In this document: positions 6,006-19,137 of the stretch, piece by piece
Layout: each line of letters begins with the position of its first letter
Numbering within the stretch: the stretch's first letter is position 1
IMG/VR virus record: IMGVR_UViG_2663762939_000013
DNA length: 24,431 nt
From: a virus
Lineage: Duplodnaviria; Heunggongvirae; Uroviricota; Caudoviricetes
Strand: one strand, 5' to 3'
Position numbers and translations under genes: made by a program
Notes under the pieces: model-generated
What the model was told of the DNA's origin: nothing
What the model saw: the letters and a program-made list of their open reading frames with translations, nothing else
Database searches by the model: none

Positions 6006-7200
<1,195 letters not shown>

Positions 7201-7767
7201 ATAGGTATGTATGACTTGCATGGAAGTTTTATTCATTCGTTTTTTCTTGCCAGCTCCATGCTCACTGATAATGGTTTAGCTACGCAGGATTATGCAAGTT
7301 GGCCCACGCACACGATAGTGTTTTTGCTGTTGTCAAGTTTCTTTGGGGGATGTATAGGTTCAACTTGTGGTGGAATTAAGTCACTTCGATTTCTTATACT
7401 TTTCAAACAAAGCAAACACGAGATAAATCAGCTTTCTCATCCCAGAGCGTTGTTGAGTGTAAATGTAGGAGGGAAGATAGTTACAGATCGTGTAATGAGG
7501 TCTGTATGGAGTTTCTTTTTTCTTTATACTCTCTTCACGGTGTTTTTTATACTGGTGTTAAATGGTATGGGATATGATTTTCTTACATCATTTGCAACAG
7601 TGGCTGCATGTATTAATAATATGGGATTAGGTTTTGGGGCTACTGCATCGTCATTCGGAGTGCTTAATGACATTGCAAAATGTTTAATGTGCATAGCTAT
7701 GATTCTTGGTCGCCTTGAAATTTATCCTGTTATTATATTGTTTTCAGGTTTTTTTTGGCGCTCCTAA
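7201..7767 (+). pseudogene. trkG: 3' fragment of trkG (Trk K+ uptake protein, TrkH paralogue), C-terminal 188 codons only
   Basis: Frame opens exactly at the IS5 boundary; membrane-protein translation with the GGCIGSTCGGIK motif typical of TrkH/TrkG; visibly AT-rich; no N-terminal part present. Confidence 0.8.
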
Positions 7768-7853: not shown

Positions 7854-7889
7854 CCCCAGTAGCACTGGCTGCTGGGGTGCGTTTTATTC
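7854..7889 (+). terminator. Rho-independent terminator-like hairpin downstream of the trkG fragment
   Basis: CCCCAG (7854-7859) / CTGGGG (7872-7877) stem with 12-nt loop, followed by TGCGTTTTATTC. Confidence 0.45.
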
Positions 7890-7904: not shown

Positions 7905-8696
7905 ATGAGCGAGAAATTAAAGATAGTCTATCGCCCATTACAAGAATTGTCACCGTATGCGCACAACGCCAGGACGCACAGTACTGAGCAGGTGGCACAA
8001 CTGGTAGAAAGTATTAAGCAATTCGGCTGGACTAATCCGGTGCTGATTGACGAAAAGGGCGAAATTATTGCGGGTCACGGTCGTGTTATGGCGGCTGAAA
8101 TGCTCAAAATGGATTCTGTTCCGGTCATTGTTCTGTCTGGCCTGACGGATGAGCAGAAAAAGGCGTACCGCCTGGCAGATAATCGCCTGCCGATGAATGC
8201 TGGCTGGGATGAAGATCTGTTGCGGATGGAGCTGTCGGACCTAATCAATGCTGATTTTGATGTCTCCCTGACAGGCTTCATCCCGACAGAAATTGATGAA
8301 CTGTTGACGGATGTTTTGCCCGGTACAGGAAATGAGGAGGAGCCGTATACGACGAAAATTGATACGCCTGTTTATGAGCCGTCGGGCGGTAAACCGGATA
8401 TCAGTGAACTGTACGACGATACGAAAACTCAGGAGCTGATCAGCCGGATACGTTCGGCGTCCCTTGAGCCTGATATTGAGAAATTCCTCCTGTGTGCGGC
8501 AGAACGTCACACGGTGTTTAATTTCAGCAGAATTGCGGACTATTACGCTCACGCCCCCTCTGAAATTCAGTGTTTTTTCGAGGAGTCGGCGCTGGTGATC
8601 ATTGATTATCAGCAGGCTATTGAAAATGGATTTGTCCGGATGACGCAGCGCATGGTGGAGATCATGCATGGTGGTGAGGAGGAGGAATATGCGTGA
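7905..8696 (+). CDS. ParB-like nuclease domain protein (ParB/Srx N-terminal domain), 263 aa; positional equivalent of K-12 Rac ynaK
   Basis: N-terminus KIVYRPLQELSPYAHNARTHSTEQVAQLVESIKQFGWTNPVLIDEKGEIIAGHGRVMAAEMLKMDSVPVIVL is a classic ParB N-terminal domain pattern; stop codon overlaps start of next gene (ATGCGTGA). Confidence 0.8.
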   Translation: MSEKLKIVYRPLQELSPYAHNARTHSTEQVAQLVESIKQFGWTNPVLIDEKGEIIAGHGRVMAAEMLKMDSVPVIVLSGLTDEQKKAYRLADNRLPMNAGWDEDLLRMELSDLINADFDVSLTGFIPTEIDELLTDVLPGTGNEEEPYTTKIDTPVYEPSGGKPDISELYDDTKTQELISRIRSASLEPDIEKFLLCAAERHTVFNFSRIADYYAHAPSEIQCFFEESALVIIDYQQAIENGFVRMTQRMVEIMHGGEEEEYA

Positions 8697-9621
8697 TGAT
8701 TTTTGCGCCTTTATTCTGACTCACGGGCGACCGGACAAAGTTCTGACTTACCGGACGTTGCGTCGTGCTGGCTATACCGGGAAAATTTTTATCGTTGTTG
8801 ATGATGAAGATAAGACACGGCATCAGTACATGGCTGAATTTGGTGAACAGGTGCTGGTGTTTTCCAAAGCCGATATCGCCAGTCGTTTTGACGAAGCCGA
8901 TAATTTCTGTGACCGCCGCTCAATTTTTTACGCCCGTAATGCCTGTTTCGACCTGGCAAAACTGGTCGGGTGTAAATACTTCATTCAGCTCGATGATGAT
9001 TATCACGAGTTCCAGTTTCGGGTGGATCGCAACTATGACCAGGCCTATTTTCCGATAAGGAAACTGGATGCGATCCTTTCTGAAATGCTGGCGTACTACG
9101 AATCAATACCTGCTCTTTCCATCGCTATGTCGCAGGGCGGGGATTTTCTTGGTGACAATGGCGGCCATGCTTCGTGGGTGAAACGCAAGGCAATGAACAG
9201 CTTTATCTGTTCGGTTGATCGACCGTTCTCATTCATGGGGCGCATTAACGAGGATGTGAATACGTACACGAATCTCGGTCGCTGTGGTGAATTGTTTATG
9301 ACGATCGGTGCTGTCCAGTTAGGGCAGAAACAGACGCAGAAAAACAGCGGCGGAATGACCGAGCTGTATCTGGATTCCGGAACCTACGTTAAAAGTTTTT
9401 ACTCCGTCATGTATGCGCCGTCGTGCGTAAAAATCTCACTGATGGGTGCCAGCCATAAACGCATTCACCATCAGGTCACCTGGAACAACGCTGCAGTAAA
9501 AATCCTTCACGAAAAATACAGGAAGAAGACACCCTGCATATCAATGGGGGTGACAAATGATTCCGTATTCGAAAGTCGAGTCTCTGGCAGCGTGCCGGAT
9601 GACTGCACAACAAATCGCTGA
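8689..9621 (+). CDS. Uncharacterised 310-aa protein, translationally coupled to the ParB-like gene; possible GT-A-like transferase (tentative)
   Basis: ATG at 8689 preceded by GGAGGAGGAA; motifs FILTHGRPDKVL, IFIVVDDEDK and YFIQLDDDYHEF spaced like the N-terminal strand / DxD signatures of GT-A fold enzymes. No fold assignment was possible here; function unknown. Confidence 0.7.
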   Translation: MRDDFCAFILTHGRPDKVLTYRTLRRAGYTGKIFIVVDDEDKTRHQYMAEFGEQVLVFSKADIASRFDEADNFCDRRSIFYARNACFDLAKLVGCKYFIQLDDDYHEFQFRVDRNYDQAYFPIRKLDAILSEMLAYYESIPALSIAMSQGGDFLGDNGGHASWVKRKAMNSFICSVDRPFSFMGRINEDVNTYTNLGRCGELFMTIGAVQLGQKQTQKNSGGMTELYLDSGTYVKSFYSVMYAPSCVKISLMGASHKRIHHQVTWNNAAVKILHEKYRKKTPCISMGVTNDSVFESRVSGSVPDDCTTNR

Positions 9622-9808
9622 CGTTCTGGATGTTGATCTGAACCGACTGAAAGAAAATCGGGAAGCAATGACAGATTTTTATGCGGCCATCCGTAAGGGC
9701 AGAGCGAAAGGTGAAGCCGAGTTACGAGCGGCATTGTTTAAGCTTGCCAGAAAAGGGGATGCCTTTGCTCTGCGCGAACTACTCAGGGTGGATAAAAATC
9801 AGGACTAA
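9557..9808 (+). CDS. Small helix-turn-helix-like protein, 83 aa (possible packaging or regulatory DNA-binding protein)
   Basis: ATG at 9557 preceded by GGGGGTGA; sequence ...MTAQQIADVLDVDLNRLKENREAM... resembles an HTH; overlaps 3' end of the upstream gene by 65 nt (alternative start at 9599 gives a 23-nt overlap); stop 3 nt before TerS start. Confidence 0.5.
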   Translation: MIPYSKVESLAACRMTAQQIADVLDVDLNRLKENREAMTDFYAAIRKGRAKGEAELRAALFKLARKGDAFALRELLRVDKNQD

Positions 9809-9811
9809 CTG

Positions 9812-10906
9812 ATGAGCAGACCGGACTGGGGGGCGTTGCAGCAGGAGTATATTGCTGAATACACCCGCTCCGGTATATCTCCGGTGGCATGGTGTGAAGC
9901 AAGGGGACTGAATTACGCAACAGCCCGTCGTTACATCAAAAAAACTCCGAAAAATGCGCAGACAGAAATGTGCAAAACTGCGCAAAAAAGTGCGCAGAAA
10001 AAATCTGCGCAGACTGCACAAAAGCGGAACGAAAAATCTCAGGAAAAAAAGCCAGTATTCGATGCGGGCCTGAATGAGGGCGACGCGGAGGAATTTTCGT
10101 TCTGTCCCGATGAATTCGGCATTTCTGACCAGCAGGCTAAGTTTGCGATGCTTGTTGCTCAGGGTAAAAAGCCGACAGAGGCGTACCGACTAGCCGGTTA
10201 TGAGGGGCAAGGTGCGACAGCTAATAGCAACGCCAGTCGTATGCTTAGAAATGCCAGGGTTTTTCGCGCTATCAGCTACTTCCGCAATCAGTACCAGAAA
10301 CGCTATACCGCAGACCTGGATTTACTAGTGAGTCAGTTGATGGCCATTGTCCTGGCCGACCCCAATCAGCTTGCACAATTTCGCCGTGTTAACTGCCGTT
10401 ATTGCTGGGGCGAGAATCATCTCTACCAGTGGCGCGATATAGCAGAATTCGACAAGGCAGCGGCGCAGGCTTCCAGAGATGGCAAACCCGAACCGGAATA
10501 TGGAGGCCTCGGCTTTGTTGATAACGCCATACCCAATCCGGACTGCCCGAAGTGCTGCGGTGAGGGAACGGGACAGCTTTATATGGCTGATACCACTCTG
10601 CTTGATGGGGATGCGCGGCAATTATATGCAGGGGCAAAATTCGGAAAATTCGGCGTTGAGATCCTGCTGGAGGATAAGGCTGCCGCCCGGCGTGAATTGT
10701 TGCGTTTGCTTTCTGCTGGCGGGGCTTTATGTGCAGATAAGCGGCTACAGGAACTGGAAATTGAACGGCGCAGAATGGAAAACCAGAAGCTGCGCAAAGA
10801 GATCGAAACGGTGGAAGATAATGAACATCCCCAGCCTGTGGCGATCAATATTAATGTGGTTGATGCCAGAGTAAGGAGTGATGAAGATGATCTCTCCGAC
10901 GCTTAA
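9812..10906 (+). CDS. Terminase small subunit (Terminase_2/P27-like core) with N-terminal extension, CxxC...CxxC zinc ribbon and C-terminal coiled coil, 364 aa
   Basis: Core QQAKFAMLVAQGKKPTEAYRLAGYEGQGATANSNASRMLRNARVFRAI matches the conserved terminase small subunit pattern; NCRYCWGENH...DCPKCCGEG zinc-ribbon-like cysteines; immediately upstream of and overlapping the large terminase. Confidence 0.8.
   Translation: MSRPDWGALQQEYIAEYTRSGISPVAWCEARGLNYATARRYIKKTPKNAQTEMCKTAQKSAQKKSAQTAQKRNEKSQEKKPVFDAGLNEGDAEEFSFCPDEFGISDQQAKFAMLVAQGKKPTEAYRLAGYEGQGATANSNASRMLRNARVFRAISYFRNQYQKRYTADLDLLVSQLMAIVLADPNQLAQFRRVNCRYCWGENHLYQWRDIAEFDKAAAQASRDGKPEPEYGGLGFVDNAIPNPDCPKCCGEGTGQLYMADTTLLDGDARQLYAGAKFGKFGVEILLEDKAAARRELLRLLSAGGALCADKRLQELEIERRRMENQKLRKEIETVEDNEHPQPVAININVVDARVRSDEDDLSDA
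9955..10020 (+). repeat. Array of six TGCGCA/TGTGCA/TGCACA palindromic hexamers inside the TerS gene (candidate pac/TerS-binding repeats; also encodes an AQK peptide repeat)
   Basis: Hexamers start at 9955, 9969, 9979, 9991, 10006, 10015 (spacing 9-15 bp); protein here reads NAQTEMCKTAQKSAQKKSAQTAQK. Confidence 0.5.
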
Positions 10907-12188
10907 TGTGCCTCAGGCGCGATTTCTTTCAATGCCCCATAAATTTAAAGCCTATATTGCTGGTTTTGGCTCGGGCAAAACATGGGTTGGGTGTGGCGGC
11001 ATATGCAAGGGGATTTGGGAGCATCCAGGTATAAATCAGGGATATTTTGCGCCAACGTATCCCCAAATTCGCGATATTTTTTACCCTACAGTGGAAGAAG
11101 TTGCTGCTGACTGGGGATTGAACGTAAAAATTAATGAGGGAAATAAAGAGGTTCACTTTTATTACGGACGCCAGTATCGGGGAACCACTATCTGCAGATC
11201 GATGGAGAAGCCACAAACGATCGTCGGTTTCAAAATTGGTAATGCGTTGGTGGATGAACTGGACATTTTGCCGAAGGAAAAAGCCAGAACGGCGTGGCGC
11301 AAGATAATTGCACGTATGCGTTATAAGATTGATGGACTTCGCAACGGTATTGACGTTACAACCACGCCGGAAGGATTCAAATTTGTCTACGAGCAGTTTG
11401 TTAAAGCCGTGCGTGAAAAAACAGAGCTGGCCTCACTGTATGGTCTGGTGCAGGCATCTACTTTCGATAATGAAAAGAACCTGCCAGCAGATTACATTCC
11501 TTCGCTTCTTGAATCATACCCTCCAGAGCTGATTAAAGCCTATCTTCGAGGACAGTTTACTAACCTGACAAGTGGTACTGTTTACCATCAGTTTGACCGG
11601 AAACTGAATAATTGCGAAGAAGTGGAGCAGCCAGGGGAGCCGATTTATATTGGGATGGATTTTAACGTTGGAAAGATGGCGGGAATCGTCCATGTGCTGC
11701 GTTTGGGGCTTCCATGTGCGGTAACTGAAATCATCAATGCCTACGATACGCCGGATATGATCCGCATCATTAAAGAACGCTTCTGGCTGTATGATGGGAA
11801 TGATTACCGGAAAGTGAGGGAAATTTATATTTATCCAGATGCTTCCGGGGATTCCAGAAAATCAAGTAACGCAAGTACGACGGATATAGCCCAGCTTAAG
11901 CAGGCTGGTTTTAACGTTGTGGTGAACAGCTCGAACCCGCCAGTAAAAGATCGCGTTAACTCAATGAATGCAATGTTCTGCAATGCCAATGGTGAGCGTC
12001 GCTATAAAGTTAATGTGAAGCGTTGCCCGTTATATGCCGAATCTCTGGAGCAACAGGTCTGGGATGAGAAGGGGGAGCCTGATAAAAAATCTGGCAATGA
12101 TCACCCGAATGATGCCGGAGGTTATTTCATCGTTAAGCAATTCCCTATTGTCAAACCGACCGGAAGAGTCACATCACTTCGGATTTAA
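10887..12188 (+). CDS. Terminase large subunit (ATPase/nuclease)
   Basis: Walker A motif AGFGSGKTW near N-terminus; ATG at 10887 has AAGGAG 8 nt upstream (in-frame GTG/ATG at 10878/10881 also possible); follows TerS; about 430 aa. Confidence 0.9.
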   Translation: MISPTLNVPQARFLSMPHKFKAYIAGFGSGKTWVGCGGICKGIWEHPGINQGYFAPTYPQIRDIFYPTVEEVAADWGLNVKINEGNKEVHFYYGRQYRGTTICRSMEKPQTIVGFKIGNALVDELDILPKEKARTAWRKIIARMRYKIDGLRNGIDVTTTPEGFKFVYEQFVKAVREKTELASLYGLVQASTFDNEKNLPADYIPSLLESYPPELIKAYLRGQFTNLTSGTVYHQFDRKLNNCEEVEQPGEPIYIGMDFNVGKMAGIVHVLRLGLPCAVTEIINAYDTPDMIRIIKERFWLYDGNDYRKVREIYIYPDASGDSRKSSNASTTDIAQLKQAGFNVVVNSSNPPVKDRVNSMNAMFCNANGERRYKVNVKRCPLYAESLEQQVWDEKGEPDKKSGNDHPNDAGGYFIVKQFPIVKPTGRVTSLRI

Positions 12189-12190
12189 TT

Positions 12191-13597
12191 ATGGCTGATA
12201 TATCAACACCCAACCTCGACTATAACGATATGCTGGAGGCGTGGGATATTAACGACGCACTGATGGGCGGTACGCTTGAAATGCGCAGGCAGGGGGAAAA
12301 TTATCTCCCAAAATGGCCTAACGAAGATGAAGACGCTTATAAAAAACGCCTGTCTGTGGCTACGCTACTTCCTGTGTATGAAGAAAGCATCAAGCAAAAT
12401 ATTGGGCGCATATTTGCAGAGCCGACAGTATTGAGTGAGGAAACGCCGGCAAAAATCAGGGAATATGCAGAAAATATCGACATGGAGGGGAGCCGACTGG
12501 ATGTGTGGGCGCAGCAATTTTTCAGCCTCGCATTTCAGTATGGTGTGGCACATGCGCTGGTGGACTATCCACGAACGGATATGAAAGAGATTCGGACAAA
12601 AGCCGATGAAAACGCGGCCGGTGGTCGTCCGTACGTTACGATGCTGAATCCACGCCAGGTTATTGGATGGAAATCGAAAGTTGAAAAAGGGAAAGTTGTT
12701 CTCACTGATTTGCGTATAAAAGAGGTCATCATTATTGATGGTGATGATTTCGGGCAGAAGAAGGTGGAGCAGATCCGCCATATTATGCCCCGTCGAGTTG
12801 AAATTTATCGACGTAGCGAAGGCACTAATGGCGAATCTGTCTGGACGCTTCATGAGTCATGGAATACCAGCCGTGATGATATTCCTCTGGTAACACTGTA
12901 CACGAAGAAAACAGGATTTATGCGTGGTACACCGCCATTGCTTAATCTTGGCTTGCTGAATATCAAGCACTGGCAAAGCCAGAGCGAGCAGGACAATATT
13001 CTTCATGTTGCCCGCGTTCCATTGCTGGTGGCCTACGGGCTGGACAGGAATGAAGAACTGACGGTTGGTGCATCCACCGCTACGATTTTTGAGGACAGAA
13101 CAAAAAATGGCCTCGAATATGTTGAACATAGTGGCGCAGCGATAGAATCTGGCGAAACATCACTTGAGAAGCTGGAAAATCAGATGCGTCATGCCGGCGC
13201 TAAACTTCTGCGTGCTGAAAATACATCCACCAAATCTGTTGATCAGACTAATGAAGAGCGAATGCAGGAAAACTCGCCGCTTTATACAATGGCGAACTCC
13301 CTCGAAGATGCCCTCGATAATATTCTCCAGATAATGGCGGAATGGATCGGAGAGAGTTGCGGTGGCAATGTGGATGTGCGCACTGAACTGGATGTATCTG
13401 CCCAGGTGTTTGACTCATCCTCCGCGCTGGCTGTTCAGTCATTGCGTCAGGGCGGTGATATACGTCAGATTGATGCGGTTCGGGTGTTGCAGGCGTTGAA
13501 ATTTATCGATCAGGATTCCCGTCCAGAGGAAGTGATCGATGAATTAAAAAATCAGAGTGTAATGCTGATGGAAATCAATGATGCAAACCGTGAATGA
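12191..13597 (+). CDS. Portal protein, 468 aa
   Basis: Large ORF immediately after terminase large subunit (start 2 nt after its stop); size and position typical of portal; no domain-level confirmation. Confidence 0.75.
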   Translation: MADISTPNLDYNDMLEAWDINDALMGGTLEMRRQGENYLPKWPNEDEDAYKKRLSVATLLPVYEESIKQNIGRIFAEPTVLSEETPAKIREYAENIDMEGSRLDVWAQQFFSLAFQYGVAHALVDYPRTDMKEIRTKADENAAGGRPYVTMLNPRQVIGWKSKVEKGKVVLTDLRIKEVIIIDGDDFGQKKVEQIRHIMPRRVEIYRRSEGTNGESVWTLHESWNTSRDDIPLVTLYTKKTGFMRGTPPLLNLGLLNIKHWQSQSEQDNILHVARVPLLVAYGLDRNEELTVGASTATIFEDRTKNGLEYVEHSGAAIESGETSLEKLENQMRHAGAKLLRAENTSTKSVDQTNEERMQENSPLYTMANSLEDALDNILQIMAEWIGESCGGNVDVRTELDVSAQVFDSSSALAVQSLRQGGDIRQIDAVRVLQALKFIDQDSRPEEVIDELKNQSVMLMEINDANRE

Positions 13598-14693
13598 ACG
13601 GCTGCGTGATGAATCAATTGCTCATGCAGTCTGGATATCCCGCTATAGCACTGGCGTGGCTGCCAGAATGGTGAAAATACTGAATGACAGCGATGCGGAA
13701 CTTACTGCTCGCCTGCTGATAGCACTGGACAGCCTCGATCCAGGTAGTTTTACCGTTAAGCGCCTGGAGTCACTTCTGGCGAGCGTCAGAGAGGTTAACC
13801 GCACTGCTATTAACAGCATGTTTACCAGTCTCTCCGGAGAGCTGAACGAGCTGGCAATTTATGAGGCTGGTTATCAGTTAAGTCTGTTTGATTCTATGCT
13901 ACCTGATTTTGTTGCTGATGTTCACCCTCTGGTTGGTATCTCTCCTGATGCACTTTATGCCGCTGCAATGGCGCGACCATTCCAGGGACGACTGCTCAGT
14001 GAGTGGGCCTCAGATCTTGAAGCGGATCGGCTCAGACGCATAACAAATACAGTGCGTCAGGGTTTTTTGCTGGGGGATACCAATGAGCAGATCGCAAGAA
14101 AAATTCGGGGACATGTCAGTAAGGGATTTCAGGATGGTGCATTGCAGATGAGCCGGGCTAATGCGGCCAGCATTGCAAAAACAGCGGTTGGACATCTTGC
14201 TGCTACTGCCCGTGAGAGTTTTGCCAGCGCGAATAATGATTTGATTAAGGGTAAGCAATGGTTATCAACGCTTGATAATCGTACTACGCCACAATGTCGA
14301 ATCAGGGATCGCCTCAAATATACGCTGAATAATAAACCTGTAGGTCACAGCGTGCCTTATTTGCAGGGGCCGGGAAAAATTCATTTCTGCTGCCGCTCAA
14401 CGGAAACGTTCATTCTGAAATCAGCGAAGGAACTGGGTATTGATGTTCGCGATATTTCCCCGGCTGAGCGGGCCAGCATGGATGGCGTGGTGGCCGGAGA
14501 TACAACCTACAGGGAATGGTTTTTGCGTCAGCCTTACACCAGACAAAAACAGATTGTGGGGGAAACCCGAGCAAAGCTGATTCGGGATGGTGGTATGTCG
14601 CCAGATGAATTTTACACCGATAAAGGCGAATGGCTGACGCTGAAGCAGCTCCGTGAGCGTGATGCACAGGTATTCAGAAAAGCAGGGATTTAA
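13578..14693 (+). CDS. Head morphogenesis / minor head protein (SPP1 gp7 or Mu F-like by position), 371 aa
   Basis: Overlaps portal 3' end by 20 nt; position portal-then-minor-head-then-scaffold-then-capsid is typical of protease-less head modules. Confidence 0.6.
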   Translation: MMQTVNERLRDESIAHAVWISRYSTGVAARMVKILNDSDAELTARLLIALDSLDPGSFTVKRLESLLASVREVNRTAINSMFTSLSGELNELAIYEAGYQLSLFDSMLPDFVADVHPLVGISPDALYAAAMARPFQGRLLSEWASDLEADRLRRITNTVRQGFLLGDTNEQIARKIRGHVSKGFQDGALQMSRANAASIAKTAVGHLAATARESFASANNDLIKGKQWLSTLDNRTTPQCRIRDRLKYTLNNKPVGHSVPYLQGPGKIHFCCRSTETFILKSAKELGIDVRDISPAERASMDGVVAGDTTYREWFLRQPYTRQKQIVGETRAKLIRDGGMSPDEFYTDKGEWLTLKQLRERDAQVFRKAGI

Positions 14694-14712
14694 ATAAATC
14701 ATTTATTACAAC

Positions 14713-14740
14713 AGGCTACCTTCGGGTGGCCTTTTTTATT
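14713..14740 (+). terminator. Rho-independent terminator after the head morphogenesis gene
   Basis: AGGCTACC-TTCG-GGTGGCCT hairpin (one G-U pair) followed by TTTTTTATT, 20 nt after the stop codon. Confidence 0.7.
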
Positions 14741-14797
14741 GCTGCGATCCGGATGGTGAGCAGCGTAACTGTCGGAAGACTTAAACCAGGTACTAAT

Positions 14798-15562
14798 ATG
14801 AAACTGAAAACGGTCGAGATTAACGGAAAACAATACGCAGAAATTGATACTGCTGGCCTGCCAGTTTATGTGCACGACGATGGTAAAGAAATTGGCTTCG
14901 ATGCACCGCTGGCGACAAAAAAAATTACAGAGCTTAATGGCGAGGCAAAAAATCATCGCCTGGCTAAAGAAGCTGCAGAGGAAAAACTGGCTAAGTTTGC
15001 CGCTATCGAAGACCCGAAGAAGGCGATCGAGGCACTGGAAATGCTGTCAAAAATCGACCAGAAAAAGCTGCTCGATGCGGGACAGGTTGACCAGGTTAAG
15101 GCAGAAATTACGAAAAATTTTCAGCAGCAATTAGATGAAGAAAAGCAACGCTCTCAGATGCTGGAGAAGCAGCTTTACGATTCTATGATTGGCGGTAGTT
15201 TTGCGGGTTCAAAATATATTGCCGATAAAATTGCGATCCCGGCAGATTTATTACAAGCCCGCTTCGGGCAGGCATTCAAAGTGGAAGAAGGGAGGATCGT
15301 TGCTTATGACGCTTCCGGCAACAAAATTTATTCCCGCGCGAAGCCTGGCGAACTGGCGCAGTTTGATGAGGCGCTGGAGTTCCTTGTCGAAAATTACCCT
15401 CAGAAAGACTACATCCTGAAAGCCAGTGGCAACAATGGCGGCGGCTCCCGTCCGACACAGCATGATATTGGTCAGAAAACGATGAAACGCTCTGCTTTTG
15501 ATGCACTGGATGTTGCAGGTAAGCAAAACGCATTGAAAGACGGTATCACAATCGTTGATTAA
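14798..15562 (+). CDS. Scaffolding protein (putative), 254 aa
   Basis: Highly charged, alpha-helical-looking (K/E/A/Q rich) protein immediately upstream of the major capsid gene; ATG at 14798 chosen after the terminator. Confidence 0.65.
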   Translation: MKLKTVEINGKQYAEIDTAGLPVYVHDDGKEIGFDAPLATKKITELNGEAKNHRLAKEAAEEKLAKFAAIEDPKKAIEALEMLSKIDQKKLLDAGQVDQVKAEITKNFQQQLDEEKQRSQMLEKQLYDSMIGGSFAGSKYIADKIAIPADLLQARFGQAFKVEEGRIVAYDASGNKIYSRAKPGELAQFDEALEFLVENYPQKDYILKASGNNGGGSRPTQHDIGQKTMKRSAFDALDVAGKQNALKDGITIVD

Positions 15563-15660
15563 CACATTTGTCAGCTTCCGGATGGGAGCTGGTGTCAGGG
15601 CTGGATAGCTCATTACTCCATCTATTCACAATTACGCAAATTTTTAAGGAATATTTAATT

Positions 15661-16800
15661 ATGGCTGGAAATACCCTGACCGGGTTGATCCCGACTATTT
15701 ATACCGCCCTGGATGTTGTATCCCGTGAGCAGGTAGGTTTTATCCCTGCGGTAGCAAAAAACGCAAAAGCTGACGCCGCAGCAAAAGATCAGACGGTAAC
15801 CGCGCCAGTTGCGCCTGAGGCGAAAACCGAAGATATCGTACCGGGGCCGTCAGCTCCGAATACCGGTGATCAAAATATTGGCACTGTTGATGTAAAAATT
15901 ACTAAATCCAAAATGGCACCGGTTAAATGGAATGGTGAAGAACAACTGGCTCTTGGCCCTTCAGGGACTTACAACACCATTCTGGCTGATCAGTTCAAGC
16001 AGGCTTTTCGCGCCCTTGCAAACGAGGTTGAGGCTGATCTTGGTGCGTTGTATTTCGGTGCTTCCCGCGCCGTGGGAACCGCAGGGACAACGCCGTTTGG
16101 TGTTAAAGATGATCTTTCTGATGCTGCTCTGGCTCGTCAGGTTCTGGAGGATAACGGCGCACCGACAACCGATCTGCAGATGGTGCTTGGCTCCACTGCC
16201 ATTGCTAATTTGCGCGGAAAACAGTCTGTATTGTTTAAAGTGAATGAATCCGGCACTGAACAGCTACTGCGTGAGGGCGTGTTGGGGCGTCTGGAGGGAT
16301 TCAATATTCACAGTTCGGCAGGTGTGAAACGAGCGCCAAAGGTTGCTGCAACTGGTTATCTCGTGAATGGAGAGAAAAAAGAAGGCGATGTTCTTATTTC
16401 CATTGATACTGGTTCGGGGAGTATTTCTGCAGGTCAGATTGTTACGTTCGCTGGTGATCCGAATCAGTATGTTGTGGCAGCAGCGACCAGCAATCTGATT
16501 ACTCTTGCAGCGCCCGGACTGCGTCAGGATCTGGCCGATGATACTGCCATCACAGTTGTTGGGGCCTTTACTGCAAATATGGCGTTTGATCGCAACGCGT
16601 TTCTGCTGGCATCCCGTACTCCGGCAATGCCGGAAGGTGGCGATAATGCTGATGATGTAATGAATGTTACGGACCCGATTTCAGGGATTACGTTCCAGAT
16701 TGCACTGTATCGTCAGTATCGCCAGGTGCGCTATGAAGTTGGACTGGCATGGGGTGTTTCATCAGTGAAGCCGGCACATGGTTGTCTGATTCTTGGTTAA
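15661..16800 (+). CDS. Major capsid (coat) protein, 379 aa
   Basis: ATG at 15661 with AAGGAA upstream; about 380 aa, G/A/T-rich composition typical of coat proteins; followed by a strong terminator hairpin. Confidence 0.75.
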   Translation: MAGNTLTGLIPTIYTALDVVSREQVGFIPAVAKNAKADAAAKDQTVTAPVAPEAKTEDIVPGPSAPNTGDQNIGTVDVKITKSKMAPVKWNGEEQLALGPSGTYNTILADQFKQAFRALANEVEADLGALYFGASRAVGTAGTTPFGVKDDLSDAALARQVLEDNGAPTTDLQMVLGSTAIANLRGKQSVLFKVNESGTEQLLREGVLGRLEGFNIHSSAGVKRAPKVAATGYLVNGEKKEGDVLISIDTGSGSISAGQIVTFAGDPNQYVVAAATSNLITLAAPGLRQDLADDTAITVVGAFTANMAFDRNAFLLASRTPAMPEGGDNADDVMNVTDPISGITFQIALYRQYRQVRYEVGLAWGVSSVKPAHGCLILG

Positions 16801-16810
16801 ACATTCAAAC

Positions 16811-16830
16811 GGGGCTTCGGCCCCATTTTT
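16811..16830 (+). terminator. Rho-independent terminator after the capsid gene
   Basis: GGGGC-TTCG-GCCCC hairpin followed by ATTTTTAA, 11 nt after the capsid stop codon. Confidence 0.7.
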
Positions 16831-16842
16831 AATGGGGGGCAT

Positions 16843-17019
16843 ATGGCCGGATTAACTAAAGAGCAAAGAGCACAGCGTGAAGCCGCACAAAAAACGCAAA
16901 TTGAGTTAGTGGTTATGGTGACCGATTATCAGATGTTTCCCGGCGCACCAACTATCGCTAATGTTCATCCTGATGAAGTTGACAACTGGAAGGCTATGGG
17001 CTGGAAAACTCAGGAGTAA
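16843..17019 (+). CDS. Small hypothetical protein, 58 aa
   Basis: ATG at 16843 downstream of GGGGGG; ends at TAA 17017-17019, 3 nt before the next gene start and overlapping its CAGGAG Shine-Dalgarno; below the size cutoff of the supplied ORF track. Confidence 0.35.
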   Translation: MAGLTKEQRAQREAAQKTQIELVVMVTDYQMFPGAPTIANVHPDEVDNWKAMGWKTQE

Positions 17020-17022
17020 CAC

Positions 17023-17418
17023 ATGATCACTTACGTGACCTGTGATGACGTTGATAATGCGTTTGGGAACGCCTGGACGAGTGAGAACGCTAAAAATAAA
17101 GCTGTTTTAATGGCTAATGCCTGGCTTAATGGCTTCAACCTGAAAATTAACCCATCCCGTATTCCGGAAGAGGTAAAACTTGCGGGAGCATATGCAGCCA
17201 GAATTGCCTCATTCGGTAAGTTGTTTCAGCAGAAAAATGATTCTGGCGTTGTTATCAGTAAAGCCGTGTCGGCTGACGGGGTCAGTGTATCGAAATCATT
17301 TTCTGAGTTGCCAGCAAACAGCACTGCATTGCTTGAACCCGATTTACAGCTTGCGATAGCACTGCTGAAACAGTACGGACTTAGTCGCTCACAAGTCAGG
17401 GTTGTGAGGGGGGGATAA
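17023..17418 (+). CDS. Head-tail connector / adaptor protein (gp6-like by position), 131 aa
   Basis: Strong RBS CAGGAG; stop overlaps start of next gene (TAATG); position after capsid gene. Confidence 0.6.
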   Translation: MITYVTCDDVDNAFGNAWTSENAKNKAVLMANAWLNGFNLKINPSRIPEEVKLAGAYAARIASFGKLFQQKNDSGVVISKAVSADGVSVSKSFSELPANSTALLEPDLQLAIALLKQYGLSRSQVRVVRGG

Positions 17419-17715
17419 TGGGGCTTCGTGAAGAGATTCAGTCAGAGGTTGCCGCTGCTTTTGATGAGGATTTAGCGGACGCCGTGAGTGATTTTTCTGG
17501 TTCTTACGTTACGCACCGGCACTGGGATCCTGTGACGGAAACTGGCGGCGAATCCACCGCAATCTATACCGGGCGAGGCGTGTTGACACGTTATAAGCTG
17601 GGCAGAATTGATGGGATTAATATTTTGCATGGTGACCTTAAATTAACCGCTCTGGTATGCGAGGTTACGGATAAACCAGCTGTCGACCATATTATTGAGA
17701 TTTATGATCCTGTAT

Positions 17716-17720
17716 CAAGG
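17716..17720. repeat. IS2 target-site duplication, left copy (CAAGG)
   Basis: 5-bp CAAGG immediately left of the IS2 end at 17721; identical copy at 19052-19056. Confidence 0.9.
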
Positions 17721-17731
17721 TGGATTTGCCC

Positions 17732-18637
17732 CTATATTTCCAGACATCTGTTATCACTTAACCCATTACAAGCCCGCTGCCGCAGATATTCCCGTGGCGA
17801 GCGATAACCCAGCGCACTATGCGGATGCCATTCGTTATAATGCTCGAACGCCTCTGCAAGGTTCTTTGCTGCCGTTAACCCGTCTGGTTTGGGCATGATA
17901 CTGATGTAGTCACGCTTTATCGTTTTCACGAAGCTCTCTGCTATTCCGTTACTCTCCGGACTCCGCACCGCCGTGTTCTTCGGTTCAAGTCCCAACATCC
18001 GGGCGAACTGGCGTGTTTCATTAGCCCGGTAGCATGAACCATTATCCGTCAGCCACTCCACTGGAGACGACGGAAGATCGTTGCCGAAGCGGCGTTCCAC
18101 CGCTCCCAGCATGACGTCCTGTACTGTTTCACTGTTGAAGCCGCCGGTAGTGACCGCCCAGTGCAGTGCCTCACGATCACAGCAGTCCAGCGCGAACGTG
18201 ACACGCAGTCTCTCTCCGTTATCACAGCAGAACTCGAACCCGTCAGAGCACCATCGCTGATTGCTTTCTTTCACGGCCACTCTGCCTGTATGTGCCCGTT
18301 TCGATGGCGGTACAGCAGGTTTTCGCTCAAGCAACAGCGCATTCTGGCGCATGATCCGGTAAACACGTTTGGCATTGATCGCAGGCATACCATCAAGTTC
18401 TGCCTGTCTGCGAAGCAGCGCCCATACCCGACGATAACCATACGTTGGCAGCTCTCCGATAACATGGTGTATACGGAGAAGCACATCCGTATCATCAGTG
18501 TGACGACTGCGGCGGCCATCCATCCAGTCATCGGTTCGTCTGAGAATGACGTGCAACTGCGCACGCGACACCCGGAGACAACGGCTGACTAAGCTTACTC
18601 CCCATCCCCGGGCAATAAGGGCGCGTGCGCTATCCAC
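17732..18637 (-). CDS. insD: IS2 transposase InsD (orfB), 301 aa
   Basis: Translation [37 protein letters not shown]... ending ...NRCLEI recognised as IS2 InsD; overlaps insC, consistent with the frameshift fusion arrangement. Confidence 0.95.
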
Positions 18638-18960
18638 TTTTTTGCCCGTCCATATTCAACGGCTTCTTTGAGGAGTTCATTTTCCATCGTTTTCTTGCCG
18701 AGCAGGCGCTGGAGTTCTTTAATCTGCTTCATGGCGGCAGCAAGTTCAGAGGCAGGAACAACCTGTTCTCCGGCGGCGACAGCAGTAAGACTTCCTTCCT
18801 GGTATTGCTTACGCCAGAGAAATAACTGGCTGGCTGCTACACCATGTTGCCGGGCAACGAGGGAGACCGTCATCCCCGGTTCAAAGCTCTGCTGAACAAT
18901 TGCGATCTTTTCCTGTGTGGTACGCCGTCTGCGTTTCTCCGGCCCTAAGACATCAATCAT
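18595..18960 (-). CDS. insC: IS2 InsC (orfA) HTH protein, 121 aa
   Basis: [56 protein letters not shown]... recognised as IS2 InsC. Confidence 0.95.
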
Positions 18961-19051
18961 CTGTTCTCCAATGACTAGTCTAAAAACTAGTATTAAGACT
19001 ATCACTTATTTAAGTGATATTGGTTGTCTGGAGATTCAGGGGGCCAGTCTA

Positions 19052-19056
19052 CAAGG
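19052..19056. repeat. IS2 target-site duplication, right copy (CAAGG)
   Basis: 5-bp CAAGG immediately right of the IS2 end at 19051. Confidence 0.9.
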
Positions 19057-19137
19057 CAGTTACAACGATACGAGGTAATTACAGCAAGTGTAGATCCTTC
19101 CGCATCAGTTTACTCTATCCAGTTAAGGAGAGCGTAA

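Follow-up and report, generated by a model that had tools for sequence, protein, structure and literature searches.

The window analysed here, a stretch of 24,431 nucleotides taken as a whole, carries an IS5-disrupted, defective prophage of the Rac type in which two overlapping genes, encoding a ParB-like protein (ORF A) and a putative glycosyltransferase (ORF B), form the beginning of the packaging module. The features of the locus, in window coordinates, are as follows.

6006-7200, no strand assigned: IS5 (inverted repeats and Pfam matches to its transposase)
7186..7767, no strand assigned: 3' fragment of trkG abutting IS5 (Pfam match to TrkH positions 306-500 only)
7854..7887, plus strand: terminator-like hairpin with T-tract between the trkG fragment and the ParB gene (consensus scan only)
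7905..8696, plus strand: ORF A, ParB-like partner, 263 aa, ATG start
8689..9621, plus strand: ORF B, TAGT-family GT-A glycosyltransferase (predicted), 310 aa, preferred start at the ATG at 8689
9557..9808, plus strand: small ORF of 83 aa (70 aa in RefSeq) between the glycosyltransferase gene and TerS (phrog_309, E 8e-23)
9812..10906, plus strand: TerS, terminase small subunit, directly downstream (Pfam)
10878..12188, plus strand: TerL, terminase large subunit, directly downstream (Pfam)

Taken as a mechanical ORF, ORF B begins at 8668. We set its start at 8689 because this ATG is preceded by what reads as a Shine-Dalgarno stretch, GAGGAGGAGGAA, and because ORF B homologues likewise open with MR(D/E)DF. 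The stop/start overlap pointed out in an earlier sequence-only reading of this DNA is present: the stretch ATGCGTGA at 8689-8696 holds both the start of ORF B and the stop of ORF A (TGA, 8694-8696), and through this overlap ORF B is presumably coupled translationally to ORF A. The same reading placed the pair directly upstream of the terminase, where it is indeed followed by the 83-aa ORF, TerS and TerL. The small ORF resembles part of a small terminase subunit (phrog_309) and is kept 3' of the pair in 14 related loci (our cluster c3), being annotated also in ETEC H10407, and the TerS/TerL region (9812..12188) matches PF03592, PF03237 and PF17289. On the other side of the pair, the hairpin at 7854..7887 is probably the terminator of the trkG moron, and a consensus scan returned no promoter-like site between this hairpin and the two genes.

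The intact prophage of ETEC H10407 at 862-903 kb, in which the pair lies 3' of the Q antiterminator and lysis genes, serves to define what the present prophage has lost, namely its immunity, replication, antiterminator and lysis genes. With the regulatory, replication and lysis genes on the IS5 side missing, this copy of the pair is left without its normal late-transcription context and, the prophage being defective, it may be silent in this strain. Both reading frames are intact and identical to those of complete prophages and isolated phages. Truncated or fused versions of the pair occur in many E. coli genomes. The K-12 Rac counterparts had been described as short remnants, which is accurate for the ParB gene, since ynaK preserves the first 85 codons of ORF A (with 99.9% DNA identity up to window position 8158) and the rest is lost, but not for the glycosyltransferase gene, which is wholly absent from K-12 Rac as a result of a 12.9-kb deletion (window 8159-21054). 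A second K-12 candidate, ydaY, was rejected as an unrelated gene of the tail region.

ORF B is a member of the TAGT glycosyltransferase family

By profile comparison, ORF B is a clear member of the TET-associated glycosyltransferases (TAGT). It matches PF20691 with 122.3 bits against a cut-off of 27.5 (E 3.4e-35), residues 8-222 aligning to profile positions 4-205 of 205, and phrog_842 with an E-value of 6e-104; PF20691 is likewise carried by all listed ORF B homologues. The TAGT family was reportedly defined by Iyer et al. in 2013. The AF2 model of ORF B adopts a GT-A fold (pLDDT 78, rising above 90 across most of residues 1-150), and Foldseek searches with this model give TAGT proteins as the best BFVD matches (E 5e-26, TM 0.76-0.83). 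The best PDB matches, weak at a TM of about 0.45, are all GT-A enzymes and include peptide GalNAc-transferases and S-glycosyltransferases. Querying PDB sequences with the glycosyltransferase profile returned nothing at E <= 1 and, by this test, no member of the family has a solved structure. NCBIfam contains no model matching the glycosyltransferase, and neither does PADLOC, so that it is not a catalogued defence protein.

An R...DDD...ED(Y/F) site has been described for phage GT-A DNA glycosyltransferases and for the trypanosome JGT (Pyle et al.), and R14, D102-D104 and E188-D189 of ORF B conform to this catalytic signature. R14, D102-D103-D104, K167, D189 and H260-H261 are invariant among 12 diverse homologues (27-83% identity), and E188 is near-invariant among 47 closer ones. 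The sequence-only reading had proposed a GT-A nucleotide-sugar transferase on the strength of two acidic motifs spaced like DxD signatures. The fold and the invariance of D102-D104 bear out the proposal, and no structural assignment to a family devoid of transferase chemistry emerged. Both motifs are present (IFIVVDDEDK at residues 33-42 and YFIQLDDDYHEF at residues 97-108), but only the second one is the DxD. The first, in which D38 and D41 are invariant in the 47 closer homologues and D41 is near-invariant in the 12 very diverse ones, is probably a nucleotide-binding acidic loop. Nor, at the level of its family, can the transferase be called uncharacterised, as it was then, because PF20691 is a curated family that includes metavirome DNA glycosyltransferases tested experimentally. 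Taken together, sequence and model support the prediction that ORF B transfers a sugar from a nucleotide-sugar.

Beyond the Pfam model, the ORF B subfamily, which comprises about 700-1500 clusters at 50% identity, shows a conserved C-terminal region of ~65 residues with the invariant His-His; a Pfam scan of the C-terminal 93 residues of ORF B (E <= 5) turned up nothing above noise. ORF B ends in a tail of ~25 residues that is specific to E. coli and runs into the following ORF. The protein as a whole is mildly basic, and relatives are found fused or adjacent to putative tailoring domains, namely SAM methyltransferase, sulfotransferase, P-loop kinase-like and second TAGT domains.

ORF A combines a ParB N-domain with a conserved linker and C-terminal domain

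ORF A starts, as had been noticed from its sequence, with a ParB N-domain (ParB_N, PF02195; 29.3 bits against a cut-off of 26.3), and phrog_620 covers its whole length (E 1e-90). The AF2 model (pLDDT about 90 for residues 11-90) and the profiles outline an NTP-binding ParB_N domain (~1-135), a linker (~137-169) and a helical C-terminal domain (CTD, ~170-255). The "nuclease domain" label that had been attached to the protein reflects the old name of ParB_N. Among solved structures, the N-domain comes closest to CTP-binding clamps, namely Noc, ParB and Spo0J (E 1e-12 to 1e-9; with M. xanthus ParB as the ParB, E 2e-12 to 3e-10 over residues 3-134), whereas the match to the archaeal "ParB domain protein nuclease" 5k5d is far weaker (E 7e-5). 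Moreover, phage DNA methyltransferases carry an N-domain of this subtype as a fusion (PADLOC MTase_II, E 1.5e-38; phrog_498, E 9e-51). Given these clamp relatives and methyltransferase fusions, a role of ORF A in NTP binding or enzyme loading seems more likely than nuclease activity.

At the positions of Q52, E93 and E126 of M. xanthus ParB, ORF A aligns N21, H58 and D92. A canonical partition ParB was considered and rejected (TIGR00180, 38.1 bits against a cut-off of 58.45); neither the window nor the H10407 prophage contains a ParA-like gene, and no HTH or any other Pfam domain follows residue ~135. The protein is strongly acidic (pI 4.5), an observation that does not sit easily with a loader. 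Its full-length homologues reach viruses of Lactobacillus, Nocardia, Porphyromonas and Haloarcula at 25-42% identity.

The linker is predicted to be disordered, yet both linker and CTD are conserved across 46 distinct ORF A sequences. Its motif reads Y148-T149-x-K-I-x-x-P155-x-Y157-E-P159, with Y148 retained in 45 of the 46 partners and Thr or Ser at position 149 in every one. Ser/Thr160 of YEP[ST]G was evaluated as a conserved glycosylation acceptor and discarded, since Lys takes its place in 14 of the 46 partners and in Vibrio phages. Scanned against Pfam at E <= 5, linker and CTD gave only noise, and the CTD appears to be a previously undescribed domain.

The two genes travel and diverge together

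That the two genes might form a conserved pair upstream of terminases was part of the sequence-only reading, and the survey of related loci agrees with it. In virtually all of the roughly 150 loci examined the two genes are neighbours, and they lie almost always just 5' of the terminases, which belong to at least five unrelated terminase clusters. In the near clade, a ParB-family ORF is found upstream of the transferase in 87 of 87 loci and adjacent to it in 86, the exception (our L081) having it about 3 kb upstream. In a clade only 27% identical, the ParB ORF is adjacent in all 68 loci with room upstream, including four whose called ORFs overlap by over 60 nt, which an automatic distance filter had rejected and which were counted as adjacent. 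Overlapping pairs occur in Lactobacillus phages c5 and phi jlb1, Nocardia phage NTR1, a Porphyromonas phage and halovirus HHTV-2. Escherichia phage vB_EcoS-673R7 and Salmonella phage SPF_0923 likewise have an intact pair. The cassette spans phages of Proteobacteria, Firmicutes, Actinobacteria and Bacteroidota as well as a haloarchaeal virus, crossing between bacterial and archaeal viruses at about 40% identity, and it is present in 867 of 5426 complete E. coli genomes (match over at least 80% of the 2.2-kb query).

The two proteins co-diverge under purifying selection: their divergences are correlated over 125 distinct pairs (Mantel r 0.92), and omega lies at about 0.07-0.27 for the pair genes among E. 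coli variants, a set that leaves out several ParB comparisons mis-registered by a one-codon indel. Omega was taken from these closer variants because dS against relatives outside E. coli is saturated.

The CTD appears to be the part of ORF A that is specific to the transferase. T4-like phages of Vibrio, in which the pair is placed within the replication module, carry only linker and CTD beside the transferase, with no ParB NTP-binding domain, and a tblastn search with the CTD retrieved 28 phage records, all 28 of which also contain the transferase. A fusion of ParB and transferase was not found among the best 150 family representatives, where the long proteins are methyltransferase, sulfotransferase, P-loop-kinase-like or tandem-TAGT fusions. 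A 2026 survey (NAR) counted solitary TAGT homologues in 288 of the 753 phage genomes encoding a transferase, their function being described there as unknown. The subfamily described here is not solitary, being tied to a ParB-like partner through the CTD.

No source of a hydroxymethylated acceptor is apparent

To our knowledge, phages glycosylate their DNA only where 5-hydroxymethyl- or 5-hydroxy-pyrimidines have been made beforehand, and the characterised DNA-directed TAGTs all take a 5-hydroxymethyl-pyrimidine or a sugar hydroxyl as acceptor. The window revealed no TET/JBP dioxygenase and, as far as general Pfam matches and annotations show, no pyrimidine hydroxymethylase. The intact H10407 prophage and the complete phages c5 and phi jlb1 contain neither a TET_JBP match nor an annotated dioxygenase, and TET/JBP is absent from five metagenomic places with precomputed Pfam annotation. 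Among about 150 neighbour ORFs there was again no TET_JBP match and no annotated dioxygenase, although for a batch of 125, in which the best 25 of 65 families were considered, weak matches cannot be strictly excluded. In Vibrio phage pv27, a thymidylate synthase gene is annotated beside DHFR some 43 kb away from the pair, and the first 50 kb include no annotated hydroxymethylase. Hence, as no enzyme making a 5-hydroxymethyl-pyrimidine was found, the acceptor would differ from the hydroxyl of 5hmC or 5hmU.

Discussion

The best explanation for these observations is that ORF A and ORF B constitute one functional module, and of the roles that had been listed for the pair from sequence, DNA modification is the best supported. 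We put at about an even chance the interpretation that this is a late-expressed module glycosylating phage DNA before packaging, with the ParB-like protein as loader or activator. ORF B would be a Mn/Mg-dependent GT-A glycosyltransferase and ORF A its dedicated partner, whose CTD, probably together with the conserved linker motif, would bind the transferase. The NTP-binding domains would dimerise to form a nucleotide-gated clamp, and this clamp would keep or activate the mildly basic transferase on double-stranded phage DNA. Because ORF A is acidic and devoid of a DNA-binding domain, it is presumably the clamp that holds the enzyme in place. Co-transcription with the late genes would then lead to a sugar being added to concatemeric phage DNA shortly before or during packaging, and this sugar might shield the injected DNA from the nucleases of the next host. 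Relatives could methylate, sulfate, phosphorylate or extend the sugar further. Only tentatively, and as a proposal that we hold to be rather doubtful, can this be taken one step beyond, to an undescribed form of glycosylation in which a sugar is placed post-replicatively on a canonical, host-methylated or otherwise non-hydroxymethylated DNA site, with no prior oxidation and with a ParB-fold clamp docking the enzyme via a new adaptor domain.

A different target is conceivable. The transferase might glycosylate a protein, be it the partner itself (at the linker Tyr-Thr), the terminase, the portal, or a virion or host protein, with ORF A as substrate or adaptor. GREB1, another TAGT-domain protein, O-GlcNAcylates the oestrogen receptor; the disordered linker of ORF A preserves Y148 and T/S149 almost throughout, and no hydroxymethyl-pyrimidine source was found. 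Fusions with sulfotransferases and methyltransferases, moreover, are a widespread feature of glycan tailoring. Peptide GalNAc-transferases and S-glycosyltransferases figure among the best PDB folds, but these matches are weak and reflect the generic GT-A fold. We nevertheless consider a protein target unlikely, as the N-domain of ORF A is of the type encountered in DNA methyltransferase fusions and DNA-dioxygenase activators, position 160 of the linker motif is not conserved, and in one phage group that carries a cluster of four GT2 genes after the capsid gene the ParB-TAGT pair still resides at the terminase.

The near-constant proximity to TerS and TerL of many types could also mean that the pair serves packaging and not protection, the ParB-like protein marking or organising the pac/cos region or the concatemer, and the transferase providing a local mark or a structural element. 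In keeping with this, the ParB gene of the cos phage c5 starts 90 nt from the cos end, and earlier authors have proposed that ParB proteins guide modification machinery to particular sites while DNA is being packaged. The pair is accessory, however, being absent from most phages with these terminase types; the Vibrio phages have it in the replication module and without the NTP-binding domain; the invariant catalytic residues argue for an enzymatic and not a structural use, and the partner is acidic and has no recognisable DNA-binding domain. A packaging role thus seems quite improbable. It is very unlikely, too, that the window copy is an inert relic, its frames intact in a decaying prophage but of no present use to the cell. 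The regulatory, replication and lysis region has given way to IS5, a terminator-like hairpin but no promoter-like site directly precedes the pair, and the truncated versions in many E. coli genomes, culminating in the near-complete loss in K-12, point the same way, but both frames are intact and identical to those of complete prophages and isolated phages, and the low omega holds across E. coli variants. In any case, this explanation concerns the local copy and not the nature of the module.

The prophage enzyme TarP modifies teichoic acid, and the pair might by analogy modify the cell envelope or another non-nucleic-acid glycoconjugate, leading to lysogenic conversion or superinfection exclusion. 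TarP is the top solved structural neighbour of phage GT-A enzymes (Pyle et al.), the GT-A fold is common to envelope glycosyltransferases such as TarS and SpsA, and weak GT9-like and MptE-like genes adjoin the pair in two enterobacterial loci, but the idea is most improbable, because the pair occupies a late packaging operon and not a moron position, has no membrane or Gtr-type partner, is present in the apparently non-lysogenic phage c5 (no integrase annotated), in the replication module of T4-like Vibrio phages and in an archaeal virus with a chemically unrelated envelope, and because an envelope target gives no rationale for strict coupling to a ParB-fold protein.

To return to the preferred interpretation of DNA glycosylation by a ParB-assisted enzyme, what is new here is a large TAGT subfamily locked to a ParB-like partner through an apparently undescribed domain, and a two-gene cassette travelling before unrelated terminases in bacterial and archaeal viruses. 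The pair had been considered effectively unstudied; this is justified insofar as the TET-less pair has no characterised member, but the literature does link ParB proteins to phage DNA-modifying enzymes and glycosyltransferases in general. The results hint that common E. coli prophages and dairy Lactobacillus phages may bring about a new modification of DNA (or protein). If the tentative notion of an undescribed glycosylation were true, an unrecognised DNA modification would exist in temperate phages of E. coli, lactobacilli, actinomycetes, Bacteroidota and haloarchaea, and any DNA-directed activity would bear on restriction evasion, Type IV restriction, DNA-glycosylase defences, sequencing artefacts and enzyme tools.

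Relationship to characterized systems

The beta-glucosyl-HMC-alpha-glucosyltransferase of T2/T6 has been assigned to PF20691 (2026 NAR paper) and is the founding member among those characterised. It resembles ORF B in family, in GT-A fold and in being phage-encoded, and the PHROG match of ORF B bears its name. The T-even enzyme, in contrast, adds a second glucose to glucosyl-5hmC, the 5hmC being made prior to replication by a dCMP hydroxymethylase encoded next door, whereas neither a hydroxymethylase nor a first-step transferase was found here. In T6, the transferase neighbours uvsX and gene 42, with no adjacent gene for a ParB/CTD partner. An hhalign comparison of the ORF B subfamily profile with the T6 enzyme was not significant, aligning only the ED motif, and must be set, like the lack of ParB-transferase fusions among the best 150 representatives, on the negative side. 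Parallels exist also with the GT-A enzymes of metavirome C5-methyltransferase/5mYOX (TET) clusters (Burke 2021; Pyle 2024), which share the R...DDD...ED signature and the fold and are often near ParB-like genes, terminases and tailoring enzymes (O-methyltransferase, kinase, second transferase). Their substrate is 5hmC generated by a neighbouring methyltransferase and TET, whereas no TET/JBP was found at the examined ORF B loci, and the ORF B subfamily is set apart by its extra ~65-residue His-His region and by the obligatory partner CTD. Among eukaryotic TAGT-domain proteins, trypanosome JGT glucosylates 5hmU in DNA and depends on JBP hydroxylases, while the animal family member GREB1 glycosylates protein, an observation that runs against a role on DNA; the sequence similarity is very remote (about 9% identity) and has only been inferred by others from structure.

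On the side of the partner, E. coli K-12 YnaK (b1365) is identical to the first 85 residues of ORF A, but it is an 87-aa truncation without box III of the NTP domain, linker or CTD, and the gene for its partner is deleted. Overexpression of YnaK was reported from a screen to raise the MICs of six antibiotics, a result that says nothing on the intact module. ParB_N-fused DNA methyltransferases of phages and prophages share the N-domain subtype (E 1e-38 to 1e-51 over ~140 residues) and are also common in prophages near packaging genes; there the domain is covalently fused, whereas ORF A is a separate polypeptide with its own adaptor domain. A precedent lies in the ParB activators that switch on phage thymine dioxygenases on dsDNA, as shown experimentally for 5mYOX176/ParB176 (O'Toole et al., PNAS 2026), likewise a two-gene system of a ParB-like protein and a DNA-modifying enzyme. 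Activators of this type consist of an NTP-binding domain, an unstructured linker and a CTD, lack a DNA-binding domain, and show substitutions of Q52 to N, E93 to H/D and E126 to D, to which N21, H58 and D92 of ORF A correspond. ParB176 pairs are cognate-specific, and ORF A/ORF B pairs co-diverge. The likeness of the two proteins is one of domain layout and of the substituted positions; the linker, highly conserved in ORF A, is described as non-conserved in the ParB176 type, and the client there is a dioxygenase, whereas that of ORF A would be a glycosyltransferase with no adjacent dioxygenase found. The pair analysed here thus offers a second, independent client enzyme for the mechanism of ParB as activator.

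Organization of the gene pair

The genes analyzed here lie directly ahead of the terminase region, downstream of an IS5 and a trkG fragment.

Features of the window in and around the gene pair
6006-7200: IS5, with its inverted repeats found
7186..7767: 3' fragment of trkG (last 193 codons)
7854-7887: terminator-like hairpin (10-bp stem and T-tract), 18 nt ahead of the ORF A start
7905..8696, + strand: ORF A, the ParB-like partner (263 aa)
8689..9621, + strand: ORF B, the glycosyltransferase (310 aa); a longer mechanical ORF begins at 8668
9557..9808: small ORF (83 aa) overlapping the final 65 nt of the ORF B gene
9812..10906: TerS, downstream of the 83-aa ORF
10878..12188: TerL, downstream of TerS

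The ATG of ORF B at 8689 is preceded by the ribosome-binding stretch GAGGAGGAGGAA, and its homologues all begin likewise with MR(D/E)DF. The ORF A stop falls within ATGCGTGA (8689-8696), so that translation of ORF B is coupled to that of ORF A, in agreement with a previous sequence-only reading. The 83-aa ORF, which precedes the 364-aa TerS, looks like the middle of a small terminase subunit (phrog_309), and 14 related loci have it 3' of the pair as well. TerL is followed by portal, Mu-F-like, scaffold, P22-type coat and tail genes. The upstream hairpin is probably the terminus of the trkG moron, and no promoter-like site was found between it and ORF A.

The glycosyltransferase

ORF B can be assigned to a curated family, Pfam PF20691 or 'TET-associated glycosyltransferase' (TAGT; E 3.4e-35, with 122 bits where the threshold is 27.5), and in the family sense is not the uncharacterised protein it had been taken for. 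It also matches PHROG 842 (E 6e-104), annotated as T2/T6 beta-glucosyl-HMC-alpha-glucosyltransferase, while its RefSeq labels are 'hypothetical' or 'GREB1-related'. The AlphaFold2 model (pLDDT 78) adopts a GT-A fold, which together with the Pfam match upholds the nucleotide-sugar transferase of this fold predicted by the sequence-only reading. The closest viral structural neighbours of the model are TAGT proteins (E 5e-26); comparison with the PDB returned generic GT-A enzymes with weak scores, and sequence search retrieved no solved structure of any relative.

Residues R14, D102-D103-D104, K167, D189 and H260-H261 are invariant in twelve homologues spanning 27-83% identity, and they reproduce the R...DDD...ED signature known from phage GT-A DNA glycosyltransferases and from trypanosome JGT. 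The second of the two DxD-like motifs noted earlier is therefore the true DxD; the first (VVDDEDK), conserved among closer relatives, would by its position instead lie where GT-A enzymes bind the nucleotide. ORF B, which is mildly basic (pI 8.0-8.5), is a GT-A enzyme of the DNA-glycosyltransferase family and keeps its catalytic residues intact.

The ParB-like partner

The very acidic ORF A (pI 4.5) is composed of an N-terminal NTP-binding domain (NBD, residues 1-135, confidently modelled), a 30-residue linker predicted by AlphaFold to be disordered, and a helical C-terminal domain (CTD, low-confidence model). Among solved structures, the NBD is closest to Noc, ParB and Spo0J, all CTP-dependent clamps; the 'ParB nucleases' match far more weakly. 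The name 'nuclease domain' given to it in the sequence-only reading is a legacy label, and nuclease activity is not supported. ORF A falls below the canonical partition-ParB model and shows no HTH, and alignment places N21, H58 and D92 at the Q52, E93 and E126 positions of the M. xanthus ParB CTP site. Phage DNA methyltransferases begin with an NBD of this subtype (E 9e-51 to phrog_498, E 1.5e-38 to PADLOC MTase_II).

Linker and CTD belong to no Pfam family. Among 46 distinct partners, the linker motif Y-T-x-K-I-x-x-P-x-Y-E-P...P...L-x-D (window 8346-8420, residues 148-171), probably a docking peptide, is nearly invariant; in the CTD, R201, A211, Y214 and D234 are invariant and H202 and E226 nearly so. 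By tblastn, linker and CTD were found in 28 phage records, all 28 of which also encode the transferase. In Vibrio phages (pv27, L007 6459-7888, and five related phages of ~191-196 kb), the gene directly upstream of the transferase encodes linker and CTD only: a 139-aa protein, devoid of NBD, that shares 52% identity with residues 136-244 of ORF A. The Vibrio pair is part of the replication module, where primase/exonuclease and helicase genes flank it, and is not located at the terminase. As read from these sequence patterns, linker and CTD would constitute a transferase-binding adaptor.

Conservation and spread of the cassette

Transferase homologues were identified by tblastn in Lactobacillus delbrueckii and L. 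gasseri phages, Nocardia phage NTR1, halovirus HHTV-2 and T4-like Vibrio phages (39-47% identity), and in Porphyromonas phages (27%). The Lactobacillus phages phi jlb1 and c5, together with HHTV-2, NTR1 and the Porphyromonas phage, carry a full-length ORF A homologue immediately 5' of the transferase, its stop overlapping the transferase start. In all of these save HHTV-2, where ~3 kb intervene, the terminase comes right after the pair; c5, a cos phage, has the pair as its first genes after the cos end.

Pairing was counted in two samples of IMG/VR loci, a near clade and a distant clade for which the Porphyromonas protein served as seed. A ParB-family ORF lies upstream of the transferase in all 87 near-clade loci and is adjacent in 86, the remaining one (L081) having it ~3 kb upstream. 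It is likewise adjacent in 68/68 distant-clade loci with room upstream, counting as adjacent four that fell outside the automatic distance filter only through a >60-nt overlap of called ORFs. The TerS/TerL genes 3' of the pair fall into at least five unrelated sequence clusters, with head types including P22-like and HK97-like. Partner and transferase distances are strongly correlated (Mantel r 0.92 for 125 distinct pairs; 0.75 and 0.93 inside the two clades), and purifying selection acts on both genes (E. coli variants give omega 0.07-0.27; further out, synonymous sites are saturated). The ParB-fold protein is an obligatory, co-diverging partner of ORF B, of a subtype used with DNA-modifying enzymes. 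An exhaustive profile search yielded 1502 clusters at 50% identity, 719 of them at E <= 1e-30.

Of 5426 complete E. coli genomes, 867 match the 2.2-kb query over no less than 80% of its length, and 1619 contain a fragment or more. The copy in the window may be silent because its prophage is defective: IS5 directly links the trkG fragment to the recE/racC side of the Rac-type prophage, a junction present in none of the 5426 genomes, and the repressor/immunity, replication, antiterminator and lysis genes of the intact relative in ETEC H10407 are missing. K-12 Rac (L006) is 99.9% identical to the window through 8158 (ORF A codon 85) and picks up again at 21055, a single 12.9-kb deletion (window 8159-21054) having removed the rest of ORF A, the transferase, the terminase, the head genes and most tail genes. 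This corrects the sequence-only reading, which spoke of short remnants at the corresponding K-12 positions: of the pair, K-12 retains no more than 85 codons of ORF A (ynaK), the transferase gene is wholly deleted, and ydaY is a tail-region gene. The 87-aa YnaK stump reportedly raised the MICs of six antibiotics in a 2026 overexpression screen (PMC12924614). Many E. coli records show ORF A residues 1-~165 (window ~8400) or transferase residues 1-~232 (~9385) fused to tail-fibre, Lom, NlpC/P60 or terminase fragments (P0021-P0036, P0193-P0235, P0245; loci L045, L048, L077), which suggests repeated deletions that have one endpoint within the pair.

Acceptor and proposed mechanism

In all characterised cases, DNA-directed TAGTs act on a hydroxyl supplied by a TET/JBP dioxygenase or a hydroxymethylase, or on a sugar already attached. 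No TET_JBP match or annotated dioxygenase was found in the window, in the intact H10407 prophage, in the complete phages c5 and phi jlb1, in five metagenomic places (precomputed Pfam) or among ~150 neighbouring ORFs (for one batch, among the best 25 of 65 families). The pair is surrounded by ordinary recombination/replication genes, N6/N4 DNA methyltransferases and HNH endonucleases. In the first 50 kb of pv27, an annotated thymidylate synthase stands beside DHFR; it maps to 25.4 kb in that record and is separated from the pair by ~43 kb.

Some transferase relatives are fused to a class I SAM methyltransferase (N- or C-terminal), to Sulfotransfer_2 or to an N-terminal P-loop kinase-like domain (MIYLIVGxSCAGKS), or are tandem-duplicated (P0247, P0254, L081 7001-8719; P0264; P0286; P0265, P0289, P0300; P0263, P0273), a hint that the sugars may be methylated, sulfated, phosphorylated or extended. 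In enterobacterial relatives, in at least two loci, weak GT9-like, weak MptE-like and Methyltransf_23 genes lie just 5' of the ParB gene (L047 3912-6017; also L053, L056). These fusions and neighbours suggest an elaborable glycan. In one phage (L095 17837-20316, L096 8659-11138), four consecutive GT2-family genes come after the capsid gene and the ParB-TAGT pair is at the terminase; the GT2 run may form a cluster of its own that modifies the virion or a glycan.

On this evidence we regard the chances that ORF B glycosylates DNA as about even, and its specific form, post-replicative glycosylation without prior base oxidation, as a tentative and rather doubtful proposal. A protein acceptor, for which the analogy with GREB1 speaks, seems unlikely. 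A role in packaging itself strikes us as quite improbable, and an envelope glycoconjugate as acceptor as very improbable. The pair opens the packaging operon, and in the intact H10407 prophage the Q antiterminator and lysis genes precede it. In the proposed mechanism, the partner would dimerise through its NBDs and/or CTDs, linker and CTD would dock the transferase, and the NBD would be a nucleotide-gated module added to this adaptor. The partner would keep or activate the transferase on double-stranded phage DNA, with DNA contacts coming from the transferase, as proposed for ParB176/5mYOX176. Sugar would be added late, before or during packaging, and the injected genome would thereby be protected.

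Comparison with known systems

Both protein families, TAGT and the ParB NTPase fold, are known. In the literature searched we found no description of a strict dioxygenase-less ParB-TAGT cassette (Iyer et al. 2013 may mention the association), of the dedicated adaptor domain of the partner, of the cassette's spread over bacterial and archaeal viruses, or of its prevalence in E. coli. Published work does describe 'solitary' TAGTs of unknown function in many phages and, in general terms, ParB genes and glycosyltransferases adjoining phage dioxygenase clusters, and a ParB has been shown to activate a DNA dioxygenase. The ParB activators of phage thymine dioxygenases lack a DNA-binding domain and combine an NBD with a CTD through an unstructured linker; ORF A has this layout and, at the Q52, E93 and E126 positions, the same substitutions.
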